NCBI GenBank assembly: GCA_964422035.1
Contig: CAYQZQ010000001.1
Span: forward strand, 50,528 to 114,527
Origin: an uncultured Pseudomonadales bacterium
Lineage (GTDB): Bacteria > Patescibacteriota > Microgenomatia > UBA1400 > Chazhemtobacteraceae
Direction: 5' to 3'
Length of the DNA stretch: 64,000 bases
Below the pieces are notes generated by a model, which had not been told where the DNA came from, made no database searches, and was given only the letters and a program-made list of their open reading frames with translations. A program made the translations under genes and the position numbers. This document shows positions 21,918-33,842 of the stretch, in pieces. The stretch's first letter is position 1; the number at the start of each line of letters is the position of its first letter.

Positions 21918-22370
21918 ATGAGTAGTCTGGGAAAGCAAATGCAAAAAGGTGTTGGGCAGTTGGGTAAATCAGTTGGTGGTGACGTAGTTAAGGGTGTGGG
22001 GGAGGTGGGTAAAGGGATTGTGGAGGAGGCGGGTAAGAAAGGTATCGAGCAGATCACGGGAGGGGTGGTAAAGCCAGATGATGACAATAAGGACAGAATG
22101 AAGACAGGATTATCTGACGAGGAGGTAGTTTGGCAGAGACAACAACAAGAGAAAAGAGCCCGGGTGAGAAAAAGAATCAAAGAGTTGCAGGAGGAGTTTA
22201 AAAGAATGAGTAGAGGTGAGGAGATATTAGAGGAAAGAGAGGAAAGACAGGAAGAGGAGTTTGTTGAGAGGCGAAAAGAACAACAGGAAGAGGTAAAAAA
22301 ACAACAGAGACGCAAACTAATTAATCAGAAACAAAGCAGAGCCAGAGGAGAGTTTTTAGGGAAGCACTGA
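21918..22370 (+). CDS. Hypothetical low-complexity protein (G/V/K-rich N-terminus, E/R/Q-rich coiled-coil C-terminus)
   Basis: ORF with compositional bias only. Confidence 0.35.
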   Translation: MSSLGKQMQKGVGQLGKSVGGDVVKGVGEVGKGIVEEAGKKGIEQITGGVVKPDDDNKDRMKTGLSDEEVVWQRQQQEKRARVRKRIKELQEEFKRMSRGEEILEEREERQEEEFVERRKEQQEEVKKQQRRKLINQKQSRARGEFLGKH

Positions 22371-22390: not shown

Positions 22391-22909
22391 ATGGGCAGGA
22401 TAGAGAAGATTCGTTCTACAAATCCAAAACTTTTGGAGGGGGAAAACAAGCAGATGGTGTCTGTGTGGAGACAGAGACTGGATGACAAGGAAAAACGTAA
22501 GCTTAATCATGAGGGGGCGATTTTATTTACATATAATGACGAGATTGTAGATCATGTATGCTTACGCGGACTTCGATTTAAGGCAGAAAGCGAAGAGGAG
22601 TTGGAGAGAATGAGAGAGGAGTTGGCCCGTAGAGTGATTGCAGAGGGAAAGATGTGGCAACTGGGAGGGGATTGGAAAGTATTATGGCTTGAACCGAGGA
22701 GAAATAGTGCAGGAGGGGGAAGTTATAGATATAAATTTTGGGATACGAAAGCAAGCTCAAGGGAAGATTCTAATATCCAGAGAGTTGGAGGATACACAAA
22801 AAGTAAATACAGGCATAGTAAGCACCGTCAGTCGGTGTCGGATTATTTGAAGAGAACAGAAAGGTACAAAAATAACCAGTTTAGAAAGAAGTGGAAGAAG
22901 GATAAATAG
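22391..22909 (+). CDS. Hypothetical basic protein (172 aa)
   Basis: ORF only; no motif recognised. Confidence 0.4.
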   Translation: MGRIEKIRSTNPKLLEGENKQMVSVWRQRLDDKEKRKLNHEGAILFTYNDEIVDHVCLRGLRFKAESEEELERMREELARRVIAEGKMWQLGGDWKVLWLEPRRNSAGGGSYRYKFWDTKASSREDSNIQRVGGYTKSKYRHSKHRQSVSDYLKRTERYKNNQFRKKWKKDK

Positions 22910-22960
22910 AATTTGACAGGTGTTTGGGGGATATTTATAATTGCCTACGCACGTTAACAA

Positions 22961-23046
22961 GGGGCTGTCGTCTAATGGTAAGACATCCGGTTTTATAAAT
23001 TTATCCTCGCACCGGAAAAATATGGGTTCGAGTCCCATCAGTCCCT
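22961..23046 (+). tRNA. tRNA-like gene with a 21-nt anticodon loop (insertion, mini-intron or pseudogene); isotype undetermined
   Basis: Cloverleaf read directly from the sequence. Acceptor GGGGCTG/CAGTCCC (one G-U pair). D-arm GTCT-AATGGTA-AGAC. Anticodon stem TCCGG/CCGGA enclosing TTTTATAAATTTATCCTCGCA (21 nt instead of 7). Variable region AAAAT. T-arm ATGGG-TTCGAGT-CCCAT. Discriminator T. Confidence 0.5.
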
Positions 23047-23048
23047 AT

Positions 23049-23189
23049 AGGAAGGAAGTTGGTTAGGGCCGACCATGGTCTAAGGTTAAATACTCTTATT
23101 GAATGAGAGTGAACTAGTACCGTGAGGGAATTTCACATTCAATCAGCGTATTTGTTTTCCCACTAAATGCTTCCACCAACTTCCTTCCT
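23049..23189. repeat. 15-bp perfect inverted repeat (aGGAAGGAAGTTGGT ... ACCAACTTCCTTCCt) enclosing about 110 nt that carries a 23S-rRNA-like 15-mer (AGTACCGTGAGGGAA)
   Basis: Left arm 23049-23063, right arm 23175-23189, exact reverse complements. The internal sequence gaactAGTACCGTGAGGGAAtttc is identical over 15 nt to the conserved 23S rRNA domain I segment GAGUACCGUGAGGGAAAGG. The element sits exactly between two tRNA-like genes. Confidence 0.5.
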
Positions 23190-23199
23190 TTTGTACTTT

Positions 23200-23272
23200 G
23201 CGTCTGTAGCTTAACTGGTAAAGCCTAAGGTCCACTTCCTTAGAGTTGAGAGTTCAACTCTCTCCAGGCGCT
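23200..23272 (+). tRNA. tRNA-like gene with a non-canonical anticodon loop TCCACTT (C33, pyrimidine 37); formal anticodon CAC
   Basis: Acceptor GCGTCTG/CAGGCGC (one G-U pair). D-arm GCTT-AACTGGTA-AAGC. Anticodon stem TAAGG/CCTTA. Variable region GAGTT. T-arm GAGAG-TTCAACT-CTCTC. Discriminator T. The plus-strand fold is better than the minus-strand fold, which has a C-A mismatch in the acceptor stem. Confidence 0.5.
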
Positions 23273-23657
23273 TTAGAAAGTTTGCTTAATGCTGAGTCGC
23301 ATATCAGCTGTGTACTTGATAGCAGGCTTTCTTATACCGTGGGGTAAAAAAATAAACGAGTAGCTAATTACTCGGTCTCCTCCTTTGAGATATTTTTTAC
23401 AACCCCACGGTTTTTTTGTGGTACAAATTGGTTTATATGAGGCTGTAAGCTTGATGTAAATTAAGAGAGTGAATGTAATAACAAGTGTACTTTGAAAGGC
23501 ACGCCTAGGGTTAGTTGTTTTCAGCCAAGGCTCGGCCTTTTTGAACTCCTTGCTTAGCCGCAGGGGAGTAAACTGAGTTTTTTTAATTGTCTTTCCCTCA
23601 GTTTGTACTTTGTTCTTGTGGCTTTTTTTATGCTTTAAAATTGGTAAGATAGAGGTT

Positions 23658-25046
23658 ATGAAGTTACACAATTCATTAACAGATGAAAGGGAGGAATTTG
23701 TACCTTTGGGAGATGTGGTAAGGATGTATACTTGCGGACCGACTGTTTATGATTATGTGACGATAGGTAACTGGAGAACATACACTTTGGGGGACTTTGT
23801 AGTTAGAACACTTAAGTTTTTGGGGTATGAAGTTAAGTATGTGATGAATATTACTGATGTTGGTCATTTAACCGGTGATAATTTAGGGGACTCTGATAGT
23901 GGTGAGGACAGGATGGAGAAGGCCAGTGAGCGGGAAGGCAAGACTGCCAGTGAACTGGCTGATTTTTATAGCAAGGATTTTAAAAAAGGGATGGAGAAGT
24001 TGAATTTTGTTATGCCTGACAAGCTGCCTAAGGCAACGGCTCATATTGATGAGCAGATTGAGATGATTGAAAAGATTGAGAAGAAAGGGTTTGCCTATCA
24101 GATATCGGATGGAGTGTATTTTGATACCAGCGCTTATGAAAAAGCAGGCAATGAGTATGGCAAGTTATCATCGTTGGATGAGATAAAAGAAGGAGCAAGA
24201 GTTGAAGTTAATGAGGAGAAAAAGGATGCGCGAGATTTTGCTTTATGGAAGTTTTCAAAAGAGAAAGATCGACAGATGGAGTGGGACAGTCCTTGGGGGA
24301 TAGGGTTTCCCGGTTGGCATATAGAGTGCTCGGCTATGAGTATGGAATATCTGGGCAGTCAGTTTGATATTCATATTGGTGGTGAAGACTTGCGTTCTAC
24401 ACACCATCCGAATGAGATTGCCCAGAGTGAGACAGTAAGTGGAAAAAAGCCGTTTGTTAAGTACTGGCTGCATGGAGCATTTTTGCAAGTGGATGGAGGC
24501 AGAATGGGGAAGAGCTTGGGTAATGCATATAGTTTGCATGATCTGGAAGAGAGGGGATACTCAGCGCTTGATCTAAGATACTTTTTTTTGACAGGACACT
24601 GGCGTAAGCCGTTGAATTTTACCTGGGAGGCTCTGGAGGCAGCCAAGGTGGCCCGAAAGAAGCTGGTAAGTAGAGTCAGTCATTGGCAAGAGAAGGGGGA
24701 AAAGGGTGGAGGCTGTTTTGAGTATGAAGAAAAGTTTGTAGAGGCGGTGGAGGATAATCTGAACATGCCAAAAGCGCTGGCGGTGATGTGGGATATGATA
24801 AAAAGTGAAGAGGAAGGTAGAGATAAGCTGGCAAGTGTGATCAGATTTGACAGAATTTTGGGCTTGGGGCTGCAGGAGAGAAAAATAGTTGAGATACCGG
24901 AGAGAATTCGGGAGCTGGTAAGAAAAAGAGAATGGCTGCGGGAGCAGAGAAAATGGGATGAGGCAGATGAGGTAAGAGAGAAGATTGAAAGCCAGGGATT
25001 TAAGCTTGAGGATGAGGATGAACAAACCAAGATTGTTTCTGAGTAG
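23658..25046 (+). CDS. cysS: Cysteinyl-tRNA synthetase with a variant HIGH (TIGN) and variant KMSKS (RMGKS)
   Basis: CGPTVYDY..., zinc-ligand region GWHIECSAM, HIGGEDL..HHPNEIAQSE, and a C-terminal DALR-2-like region. ORF-track start 23610; the ATG at 23658 (MKLHNSL) has a GGAGG-like RBS (GAGG) 6 nt upstream. Confidence 0.9.
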   Translation: MKLHNSLTDEREEFVPLGDVVRMYTCGPTVYDYVTIGNWRTYTLGDFVVRTLKFLGYEVKYVMNITDVGHLTGDNLGDSDSGEDRMEKASEREGKTASELADFYSKDFKKGMEKLNFVMPDKLPKATAHIDEQIEMIEKIEKKGFAYQISDGVYFDTSAYEKAGNEYGKLSSLDEIKEGARVEVNEEKKDARDFALWKFSKEKDRQMEWDSPWGIGFPGWHIECSAMSMEYLGSQFDIHIGGEDLRSTHHPNEIAQSETVSGKKPFVKYWLHGAFLQVDGGRMGKSLGNAYSLHDLEERGYSALDLRYFFLTGHWRKPLNFTWEALEAAKVARKKLVSRVSHWQEKGEKGGGCFEYEEKFVEAVEDNLNMPKALAVMWDMIKSEEEGRDKLASVIRFDRILGLGLQERKIVEIPERIRELVRKREWLREQRKWDEADEVREKIESQGFKLEDEDEQTKIVSE

Positions 25047-26131: not shown

Positions 26132-26368
26132 TTGGATAGACAAGAGAGGCTAGACTGGTATAATTGGGTTATGATGAAGTTTGTCAATTTTTTATTGAGT
26201 AGCCTTTCAGGTAAGAGGAATTTTTCCGTTGAGGAAGGTGTGAAGTATAGTCTGAAAAAATACAAGAAGGCCTATAAATTGCTGGAGAAGTATGACCAAG
26301 AAACTGCAAAAGACTGCCAAGAATTGGCTGACCCTGAAGACTTGCGCTCTTCTATTCAAGAGCTTTAA
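26132..26368 (+). CDS. Small hypothetical protein upstream of and overlapping the Doc/Fic gene; possible cognate antitoxin
   Basis: 78-aa ORF ending inside the 5' part of the Fic/Doc ORF in another frame; no motif recognised. Confidence 0.25.
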   Translation: MDRQERLDWYNWVMMKFVNFLLSSLSGKRNFSVEEGVKYSLKKYKKAYKLLEKYDQETAKDCQELADPEDLRSSIQEL

Positions 26369-26741
26369 GCAAGGGCTTGAATTTGGGGAACCGATTCCGG
26401 TTTTTGATAGCAGGTATCCAGGTAAGTTAGAGGGTATTTTGGATTCAGTGAGGCAGACCTATGACGGGAATTACTTGAATGCGACTGTAGCTGACGCATC
26501 AGCGGCATATTTTAATCAGTTAATTAGGGGCCATCCGTTTGAAAATGGAAATAAGAGAATGGCAGTTTTGTTTAGCCACTTTTTTCTTTTGAGAAATGGA
26601 GTAGATTTTACTTTGGGAAATCGGCAGATGTACCGATTTGCTTTAATAATTGCTAAAGCGGGAGAAAGTGGAATTAAAGCTGATGAGACAAAAAGGTGGT
26701 GTAAGCAGATTATTATACGATTTACTGAGGAGAAAAAATGA
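26292..26741 (+). CDS. Fic/Doc family protein (death-on-curing-like toxin)
   Basis: Fic motif HPFENGNKRMAV (HPFx[DE]GNKR). Size is Doc-like. True start uncertain: no in-frame ATG/GTG/TTG downstream of the 26368 stop, so the genes probably overlap. Confidence 0.7.
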   Translation: MTKKLQKTAKNWLTLKTCALLFKSFKQGLEFGEPIPVFDSRYPGKLEGILDSVRQTYDGNYLNATVADASAAYFNQLIRGHPFENGNKRMAVLFSHFFLLRNGVDFTLGNRQMYRFALIIAKAGESGIKADETKRWCKQIIIRFTEEKK

Positions 26742-32525: not shown

Positions 32526-33111
32526 GTACATATACGTACATAAATCGTCTTCAAATAAATTTTTAGGTAATTATCTTATGGATTACAAATCAGAGTTGTT
32601 AAAACAGGGCAGAAAGATATTTAAGACAGATGATCTGGCTTTGTTGTGGCAGATAAAGAAGAGAAACACCTTGCTGAAGACGATTTATCGCTATTTGGAG
32701 AGGGAAGTGTTGTTTAGTGTGCGAAAAGGAGTATATAGTGTGATGCCGCCAGAGGAGCTAGATCCGTTTGTGTTGGGTACGGCCTACATGAAAGGTTTTT
32801 GTTATGTCAGTTTGCAGACGGTACTAGCTAAAGAAGGGCTGATTAATCAGGTGGTGAGGCGAGTTACTTTAATAGGAGAGAGATCGTTGGAGTTTGAGGC
32901 GGGGGGAAGAGAGTATAGCTGCAGAAAAATGAAAAAGGAGTATTTGTATAACCAGATGGGGATAGAGTTTAAACATGAGTATGCTCAAGCGAGTAAGGCA
33001 AGAGCCATTGCTGATATATTGTATTATAATTCTGATTTTTACTTTGATAAGAAGTGGGGAGAAGTAGAAAACAGGGTTGAAGAAATTAGAAAGCAGGTGT
33101 TTTTAAAATGA
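32524..33111 (+). CDS. abiEi: AbiEi-family antitoxin/transcriptional regulator (type IV TA / abortive infection); true start probably ATG 32578
   Basis: AbiEi_4-like N-terminal domain pattern (GRKIFKTDDLALLW...RKGVYSV...FCYVSLQTVLAKEGLI). Immediately upstream of, and overlapping by 4 nt, an AbiEii nucleotidyltransferase gene. Confidence 0.75.
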   Translation: MYIYVHKSSSNKFLGNYLMDYKSELLKQGRKIFKTDDLALLWQIKKRNTLLKTIYRYLEREVLFSVRKGVYSVMPPEELDPFVLGTAYMKGFCYVSLQTVLAKEGLINQVVRRVTLIGERSLEFEAGGREYSCRKMKKEYLYNQMGIEFKHEYAQASKARAIADILYYNSDFYFDKKWGEVENRVEEIRKQVFLK

Positions 33112-33842
33112 TGAAAGTACCAAGACGAAACGAGATGCCTCATAAACTGGCGATGTATAGCTTGCTGCAGAAGCTTTTGGCTGATGTGGAGATTGTTTCA
33201 AGTATTTATTTTAAGGGTGGAAGTTGTGCGGCCATGCTGGGATATCTGGACCGGTTTAGTGTGGACTTGGATTTTGATTTACTGGATAAAGAGAAAAAAA
33301 GTAATTTGCGTCAAAAGATCCATCAGGTAATAGACAGTTTGGGGTATGAAGTTAAAGATGAGGCAAAAGAGCAGTTGCAGTTTTTCTTAAAGTACAGAGA
33401 TGCGGCAAATGAGCGCAACACCTTGAAGCTGGAGATTGGAGATTTGGTGTCTGAGGCTAATGAGTATAAAAAAGTGTATTTGGTGGAGATAGATAAGTAT
33501 TGTAAGGCACAGACGATCGAGACGATGTTTGCAAATAAACTGGTGGCGTTAAAGGCTCGTTATGAGGAGGGAAAGGGGATAGCAGGGAGAGATGTTTATG
33601 ATGTTGGTCATTTTTTTAAGCAAGGATATGGAATAAACAATAAAGTGGTGGAAGACTTAAGAGGGGTGAGTATGACTAAATATATAGAAGAGCTGGTTGA
33701 GTTTGTAGAAAATGAGGTGGGAGAGAAAGTACTATATCAGGATTTAAATCCTTTGTTGAGTAAAGAGAAGCTAAATCAGGCAGTACCAAGATTGAAGGAA
33801 GAAGTGTTGATTGCTTTGAGAAGCCTAATTGTGGGTAGTTGA
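33108..33842 (+). CDS. abiEii: AbiEii/AbiGii-family nucleotidyltransferase toxin (DUF1814-like)
   Basis: NTase motif KGGSCAAMLGYLDRFSVDLDFD (GS...hxRxSxDLD). Size 244 aa; operon partner of AbiEi. Confidence 0.8.
   Translation: MMKVPRRNEMPHKLAMYSLLQKLLADVEIVSSIYFKGGSCAAMLGYLDRFSVDLDFDLLDKEKKSNLRQKIHQVIDSLGYEVKDEAKEQLQFFLKYRDAANERNTLKLEIGDLVSEANEYKKVYLVEIDKYCKAQTIETMFANKLVALKARYEEGKGIAGRDVYDVGHFFKQGYGINNKVVEDLRGVSMTKYIEELVEFVENEVGEKVLYQDLNPLLSKEKLNQAVPRLKEEVLIALRSLIVGS

Follow-up and report, generated by a model that had tools for sequence, protein, structure and literature searches.

The window, by which we mean the whole 64,000-nucleotide stretch of DNA that was analysed (positions 1-64000), reads as part of a CPR/Patescibacteria (Microgenomates-like) chromosome. 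Homologue searches returned only Patescibacteria/Microgenomates as nearest relatives of its CysRS, and likewise for the neighbours of cysS. Nearly every gene lies on the + strand. GC skew is about +0.35 to +0.5 across most of the window; profiled over the whole 64 kb, it is mostly about +0.35 to +0.55, with a minimum of +0.22 near 60-62 kb. The genes found around the locus are argS, an M50 protease gene, dnaX, ybaB, recR, cysS, ychF and a Mur ligase gene. The unit described here is located between an upstream ORF of 172 aa and the downstream cysS. This ORF (22391-22909) and the one preceding it (21918-22370, 150 aa), which are conserved and directly upstream of the unit, are both without a Pfam match; the 172-aa protein is represented by just four clusters in a database of 5.8 billion proteins. 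A few kb downstream, Pfam labels on Logan gene calls identify genes for a Fic-domain protein (26292-26741) and an AbiEii-family toxin (33108-33842), which are possible defence or toxin modules in this 725-kb genome. The exact CysRS protein of the window is encoded on a contig of 725,544 bp.

An independent Logan assembly of run SRR7048227, 21 kb long, spans the element and agrees with the window at every position; a single-assembler chimera is therefore excluded. Relatives were recovered using the 172-aa ORF as bait and fall into four lineages, designated L085-87, L088-90, L091 and L092 (the latter overlapping L083). The features of the unit are as follows, L159 being a metagenomic bacterial 23S gene.

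22913..22941, + strand: promoter P1, TTGACA-17 nt-TATAAT; 12/12 match to the sigma-70 consensus; hexamers and spacing conserved in related lineages
22948..22960, + strand: leader CGCACGTTAACAA, putative boxA-like; nearly invariant in relatives; 10/12 against the E. coli rrn boxA GCTCTTTAACAA (read from L001)
22961..23046, + strand: tRNA-like 1; 57.9 bits with the Rfam tRNA model; normal acceptor, D and T arms; 'anticodon loop' of 19 nt
23049..23063, + strand: 5' arm of the closing helix, AGGAAGGAAGTTGGT; perfect complement of 23175-23189; kept in relatives; L092 and the module-B hairpins show compensatory changes
23066..23130, + strand: 23S rRNA-derived tract in sense orientation (E. coli 23S nt 406-471: H22, H23 and the GUACCGUGAGGGAA strand); 82% identical to E. 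coli 23S, 91% to L159
23092..23110, + strand: H23-like hairpin made perfect, ACUCUUAU-UGA-AUGAGAGU, 8 bp (sequence reading and MFE fold)
23131..23174, + strand: 3' part of the interior, 44 nt, non-rRNA; homologous to the interiors of relatives (68% to L091, 45% to L086); no rRNA match
23175..23189, + strand: 3' arm of the closing helix, ACCAACTTCCTTCCT; exact reverse complement of the 5' arm; C-rich
23192..23200, + strand: TGTACTTTG motif in the spacer before tRNA 2, possibly a second boxA-like or processing motif; conserved in relatives
23200..23272, + strand: tRNA 2, ARAGORN 'Val-CAC'; 52.1 bits with Rfam; canonical body, non-canonical loop UCCACUU (C33, U37)
23273..23417, + strand: structured 3' trailer with intrinsic terminator (stem 23336-23352 / 23395-23411, then T7), from inverted repeat and consensus fold

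Organization of the unit

One predicted transcript comprises, in this order, the promoter, the leader, tRNA-like 1, the hairpin, tRNA 2, the structured trailer and the terminator. The hairpin is a spacer between two genes that are positive with the tRNA model, all on one strand with the predicted promoter before them and the predicted terminator behind them. P1 is located 20 nt upstream of tRNA-like 1. The TGTACTTTG motif occurs three times in the window (23192-23200, 23486-23494 and 23604-23612; 0.5 expected), all within 420 nt and upstream of cysS; TGTACTT is found beside these copies at 23311. Together, the leader CGCACGTTAACAA and the TGTACTTTG copies suggest a possible Nus-factor antitermination as in rrn operons, which is offered as a lead.

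The trailer (about 145 nt) adopts a consensus fold across three lineages comprising 46 pairs, 4 of which are compensatory. An anti-SD-like sequence, GGTCTCCTCCTTTGAG at 23374-23389, lies within the long terminator hairpin and is nearly invariant (GATC... in the L089 group); the trailer could be a 3'-trailer small RNA targeting ribosome-binding sites. Candidate fragments of 23S (nt 2254-2265 and 2285-2315) or of the 16S 3' end in the trailer were rejected, the best p value being about 0.03 against E. coli and the similarity being absent against the closer L159. This apparent similarity is treated as chance.

A second promoter is present upstream of cysS, in the region 23451-23657 of the window (2700-3094 in L086 and 1850-2241 in L089). 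It reads TTGACG-17 nt-TATAAT in L086 and is degenerate in the window (TTGATG/TGTAAT). In L086 and L089 it is followed by a second module, lost from the window, made of a truncated tRNA-like sequence and a hairpin with arms GGGAGGAGGTTG / CAACCTCCTCCC (hairpin B). A multi-hairpin cysS leader with U-runs comes after the second module, and no T-box was detected in it by Rfam. By eye, hairpin B of L086/L089 made a convincing remnant of the 23S 5' end; this candidate was rejected at p = 0.10-0.24.

The flanking tRNA-like genes

The first flanking gene was missed by ARAGORN with default settings and, with the intron option, was called Ile(UAU) with a 12-nt 'intron'. An archaeal-type spliced intron was rejected as an explanation, as the 'anticodon loops' of the orthologues differ in length (13-24 nt across lineages) and have no anticodon in common. 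The loops of tRNA 2 are equally diverse (CUGAUAU in L086, UUCAUAU in L091, 12 nt in L088, UUUUAAA in L092 and UCCACUU in the window) on a body that is 0.88-1.0 identical in relatives; the triplets at the anticodon position are GAU in L086, CAU in L091 and UUA in L092. The combination expected of a decoding tRNA, i.e. a 7-nt loop, U33, a purine at 37 and an anticodon constant among orthologues, is found in neither gene. Neither of the flanking 'tRNAs' can accordingly be an ordinary decoder, and the bodies of both are under strong purifying selection. The parts kept in both bodies are the acceptor stem and the T and D arms forming the elbow, and the decoding parts are lost. Acceptor stem and T/D-arm elbow are the parts recognised by RNase P, RNase Z and the CCA-adding enzyme. 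If the acceptor stem is taken as the 7 bp of the Rfam alignment, the discriminator base is U in both genes.

The hairpin and its closing helix

The two arms (23049-23063 / 23175-23189) form 15 perfect base pairs enclosing 111 nt and constitute the longest perfect inverted repeat with a spacing of at most 400 nt in the 64-kb window. The sequence-only reading, which had described exact reverse complements around about 110 nt, is borne out on both counts. It had also placed the element 3 nt after one tRNA-like gene and 10 nt before the next: the second distance stands (tRNA 2 starts at 23200), and the first is 2 nt, since tRNA-like 1 ends at 23046. The 3' arm is C-rich on a strongly C-poor strand, and is conspicuous because the GC skew of the window is extreme. 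Allowing up to 2 mismatches, each arm occurs once in the 64-kb window and no second such hairpin was found. The hairpin RNA folds at -49.8 kcal/mol, against -31.3 +/- 3.9 for shuffled sequences (z = -4.8).

Covariance models of Rfam 15 were run on the hairpin and its surroundings (22800-23700) at E<=10 and gave, for the hairpin, only chance-level miRNA matches, far below gathering scores. No LSU, T-box, SRP or 6S match was obtained in this region at E<=10 or in the whole window at gathering scores. A resemblance of GGAAGGAAG to SRP RNA was dropped, being without Rfam support.

Covariation of the helix was evaluated on the aligned arms of five A-type hairpins and of two paralogous B-type hairpins (L086 and L089). 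Across lineages, 88.9% of the cells are paired and both partners have changed in 3 pairs. Covariation scores 0.253, as compared with 0.159 for shuffles, of which 1 in 500 reaches the observed score, and slid registers score far lower; with five lineages in the databases, this signal may rest on very few independent events. The hairpin interiors fold differently in each lineage and share no common structure; the conserved feature is therefore the helix and not its contents. A closing helix of roughly 13-15 bp thus appears to be maintained by selection, with an interior free to vary. The structured RNA with a long closing helix envisaged from the sequence alone holds for the helix, which is conserved with compensatory changes, and fails for the interior.

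The 23S-derived tract

The interior had been noted for a 15-mer, AGTACCGTGAGGGAA, identical to 23S rRNA. This 15-mer (23116-23130) is indeed 23S-identical; it is the 3' end of a longer 65-nt match and not an isolated word. Positions 23066-23130 are colinear with nt 406-471 of E. coli 23S, in domain I, with 54 of 66 positions identical and E = 2e-10 in a search of the window alone, so that a coincidental match fails as an explanation and the proposal of an rRNA-derived fragment is upheld. The tract has matches in all 5,426 of 5,426 E. coli genomes, and the feature annotated under each match listed is 23S rRNA. Against L159, a verified gene, the identity is 59/65 and the local alignment score is 53, the maximum of shuffled sequences being 18. 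No rRNA gene was found in the 64-kb window, where the tract is the sole rRNA-like stretch; it is also the sole rRNA-like fragment in the 1.03 Mb of CPR DNA examined.

The H22 variant of the window, GGGCCGACCAUGGUC, is a natural one, present in 68 real 23S genes retrieved by a metagenome scan. All 68 loci continue as genuine 23S (GGGAAAGG...), and bacterial LSU rRNA was confirmed for two of them (L159 and L116). The apparently compensatory G-C to C-G changes in H22 relative to E. coli are therefore natural 23S variation inherited from the donor. The window departs from real 23S, E. coli included, at positions 23086, 23103 and 23104 (68/68 genes) and 23107 (66/68), and the universal ACCGAUAG motif is destroyed in the tract by these deviations. 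As four invariant or near-invariant 23S positions are altered, the tract is most likely a passenger and not functional rRNA or a working piece of ribosome.

Three of the four deviations, together with two changes on the opposite strand, result in an uninterrupted 8-bp H23-like stem (23092-23099 / 23103-23110). L159 and this hairpin differ at five positions, of which three are 23S-invariant, and each difference creates or keeps a base pair. Two accounts are possible. The stem may have been perfected under weak RNA-level selection for a stable hairpin, or by one quasi-palindrome template-switch event, template switching at quasi-palindromes being a mechanism known from the literature. The three clustered stem-perfecting changes could mean that the insert is under RNA-level selection, against a pure passenger. 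In the MFE fold, the H23-like hairpin is present and the H22-like hairpin is disrupted.

Distribution and conservation in related lineages

The complete unit is present, orthologous and syntenic in all four related lineages recovered, and the hairpin occupies the same position in every lineage having the tRNA-like pair. In L084, the next-closest genome with a readable upstream region (65% CysRS identity), the 172-aa ORF abuts cysS and the unit is absent; the unit is therefore a clade-specific insertion between these genes. ARAGORN found no tRNAs upstream of cysS in 30 further cysS loci, and none of 80 cysS loci taken from GTDB species genomes gave a blastn match to the element. An exact search for the RecR of the window found no record. 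In the L161-163 lineage, obtained from a RecR homologue search, the synteny differs and the tRNA-hairpin cluster is absent. Scans with the invariant 5' half of tRNA 2 returned 0 matches in metagenomes and 0 in viral contigs.

Conservation across lineages covers the promoter, the leader, the acceptor, D and T arms of both tRNA-like genes, the hairpin arms and the TTTTGTACTTT spacer, and extends to the trailer except in L092. The hairpin interior is different in every lineage. Identity of the window to L086 is 0.89-1.00 in the tRNA bodies, arms and spacer, as compared with 0.29-0.42 in the anticodon loops and 0.36 in the 23S-like interior. The 4-fold degenerate sites of the adjacent genes give the neutral level, 0.72-0.73 for window vs L086 and 0.20-0.48 for window vs L092. 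Anticodon loops and interior are at or under this level; the 5' half of tRNA 2 is 0.88 identical even to L092.

A derivation of the relatives' interiors from 23S as well was rejected. Their local alignment scores against real 23S (L159) equal the shuffle mean, and blastn against the E. coli rRNAs gave nothing beyond noise at E<5. The interiors of relatives are 0.53-0.70 identical to each other and 0.34-0.37 to the 23S-like part of the window.

A separate pattern was observed between L088-L090 and L091, which share an identical 174-aa protein, promoter and tRNA-like 1 and diverge strongly from the hairpin interior onward, where L091 resembles the window/L086 type. This pattern suggests inter-lineage recombination with a breakpoint in the hairpin.

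Origin of the tract and proposed processing

The interior is 0.36 identical between window and L086, vs 0.72 at neutral sites; the rRNA tract therefore replaced an older sequence recently, and gradual divergence does not account for it. With L092 as outgroup, a single gain in the lineage of the window is the parsimonious history. The 3' junction lies in GAGGGAA, a heptamer common to 23S (GUGAGGGAAAGG) and to the old interior (GAGGGGAATTTCA in L091, AGGGGGAATTTCA in L086); downstream of it, the window is homologous to its relatives again (0.68 to L091). Such a junction fits microhomology-seeded ectopic repair or template switching, with an rRNA gene as the presumed donor. The 23S-likeness is peculiar to one lineage and is therefore probably incidental to the role of the hairpin.

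The reading that we favour, with a probability of roughly 0.6, is that the hairpin is a processing-stem-like spacer that captured an rDNA fragment. It would be the internal spacer of a small, lineage-restricted stable-RNA operon, confined to one narrow CPR/Microgenomates clade. After the split from the closest sampled sister, about 35 nt of the old interior would have been replaced by about 65 nt copied from a 23S gene (nt 406-471), most likely by ectopic repair or template switching seeded by GAGGGAA. The copied tract would then have drifted, with changes at the four invariant or near-invariant positions. On the anatomy of the unit, the primary transcript would be cut by RNase P at the 5' side and by RNase Z at the 3' side of each tRNA-like body, and tRNA-like 1, the hairpin, tRNA 2 and the trailer would each be set free; tRNA-punctuated processing is the simplest model. 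The hairpin would in this way become a free RNA about 150 nt long, with a long duplex that resembles an rRNA leader-trailer or processing stem and could be a substrate of RNase III.

Alternative explanations

The rrn-like layout of the unit, with its consensus promoter, boxA-like motifs after P1 and before tRNA 2 and a long helix enclosing the insert, raises the question of a degenerate rrn operon relic, i.e. a second rrn operon whose rRNA genes were deleted, the 23S tract being an ancestral leftover in the 23S processing stem. The Ile(GAU) loop of the tRNA 2 orthologue in L086, similar to those of rrn spacer tRNAs, would fit as well. We nevertheless regard a relic as rather unlikely. The hairpins of the four related lineages are without detectable 23S similarity, and one lineage combines 91% identity to real 23S with neutral sites at 72% or lower. 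The similarity of hairpin B and of the trailer to 23S/16S is not significant. Nor is the locus dead, since purifying selection acts on the tRNA bodies and the stem. The tract could alternatively be at work as a functional 23S mimic: the hairpin, abundantly transcribed on this reading, would show H22-H23 and the GUACCGUGAGGGAA strand and would serve as a decoy or regulator by titrating an assembly factor, a ribosome-targeting nuclease or a ribosomal protein. Its sense orientation behind a consensus promoter is compatible with such a role, as are the foldable H22-like and H23-like hairpins, the latter improved by pair-creating changes. This proposal is quite improbable, given that no relative conserves the tract, that the universal ACCGAUAG motif is lost, that the H22-like hairpin is disrupted in the MFE fold, that the next gene downstream is cysS and not a ribosomal-protein gene, and that Rfam, searched at E<=10, gives no match to a known leader or mimic family. 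Also unlikely is a broader proposal, according to which the unit would be an undescribed class of processed ncRNA operon in this Microgenomates clade, built on an rrn-like chassis, with non-decoding tRNA-shaped modules as processing signals or effectors and the hairpin as a scaffold displaying captured RNA, here a sense 23S domain I mimic that would be a possible decoy for a ribosome-binding protein or nuclease.

The CPR rRNA genes are often interrupted, and insertion sequences are found in 82% of CPR 23S genes (PMC11270868). A split 23S rRNA was considered on these grounds, the host 23S being without nt 406-471 and the hairpin supplying the segment in trans. It is very improbable: four invariant 23S nucleotides are missing from the tract, neither its closing helix nor the 44 nt after it are rRNA sequence, and sister lineages have no such piece at the locus. 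Hardly credible is the MITE-like insertion proposed in the sequence-only reading, in which the arms are 15-bp terminal inverted repeats of a mobile element between two tRNA genes. Small size and perfect terminal inverted repeats agree with it, but the hairpin is a single copy in the 64 kb and no direct repeat was found as target-site duplication at its flanks (...CCCTAT|A... and ...T|TTTGTAC; ATA / TTT). The same hairpin also lies at the same place in diverged genomes, orthologous and syntenic within a promoter-to-terminator unit and with compensatory stem changes, and a scan of viral contigs with its arms gave 0 matches.

Comparison with known systems

Among the closest parallels to the favoured reading, a processing-stem-like spacer with a captured rDNA fragment, are rRNA/tRNA operon spacers and leader-trailer helices. 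The leader-trailer helices of E. coli surround the rRNAs and overlap the RNase III site (PMC10250234). The common points are the position of the hairpin, flanked by two tRNA-shaped genes of one predicted transcript, the long helix formed by complementary flanks around a variable interior, and boxA-like motifs and a strong promoter nearby. The present unit differs in having no rRNA gene within the helix or the window, only 65 nt being 23S-like (none in relatives), and in its non-decoding flanking 'tRNAs'.

Intervening sequences (IVSs) of bacterial 23S rRNA, known from helix 25 and helix 45 in Salmonella, Leptospira and Campylobacter and presumed to be excised at the stem, are likewise stem-loops in which the closing stem is conserved and the interior varies sporadically among close relatives. 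An IVS, however, is located inside a 23S gene, whereas here a 23S fragment is located inside a stand-alone hairpin. Ribosomal-protein leaders mimicking rRNA (L1, L10, L20, L25, S15) belong to the 5' UTR of a ribosomal-protein operon and show conservation among relatives. The resemblance is that of a short RNA similar to an rRNA site outside rRNA; the present tract differs in being upstream of cysS, unique to one lineage and without an Rfam leader match.

Ectopic rRNA fragments and filler DNA originating from repair are well known in organelle and eukaryotic genomes and rarely described in bacteria. They have in common with the tract a short colinear rRNA copy at a non-rRNA locus, a microhomology junction (here GAGGGAA) and decay at invariant sites. 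The differences are the recipient site, here a loop in a structured RNA that is conserved and probably highly transcribed, and the sense orientation of the copy. Finally, tRNA-like processing modules are known from mascRNA/MALAT1, the mitochondrial tRNA punctuation model and the 3'ETS-leuZ spacer sponge of E. coli; the likeness lies in tRNA shapes whose main role would be to direct the release of neighbouring RNAs by RNase P/RNase Z. We know of no bacterial unit described in which both tRNA bodies are conserved and the decoding loops lost. Papers on the ribosomes of CPR bacteria, on insertions in rRNA and on introns in tRNAs (PMC9297842, PMC11270868, PMC13011429) contain no description of this unit.

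Significance

The 23S tract represents a clean, datable case of a short rDNA segment copied to an unrelated bacterial locus via a microhomology junction, which is rarely documented in bacteria. It also calls for caution in annotation and in claims of 'rRNA mimics'. The host operon is more notable than the captured fragment, being strongly promoted and containing conserved non-decoding tRNA-like genes. The bodies of these genes are under purifying selection and their anticodon loops are decayed or changed in every lineage, which therefore points to a non-decoding use of the tRNA shape. The persistence of useless DNA is not expected in minimal genomes. If transcript data confirmed the processing, the unit would be a compact natural example of tRNA-punctuated small-RNA release in bacteria.
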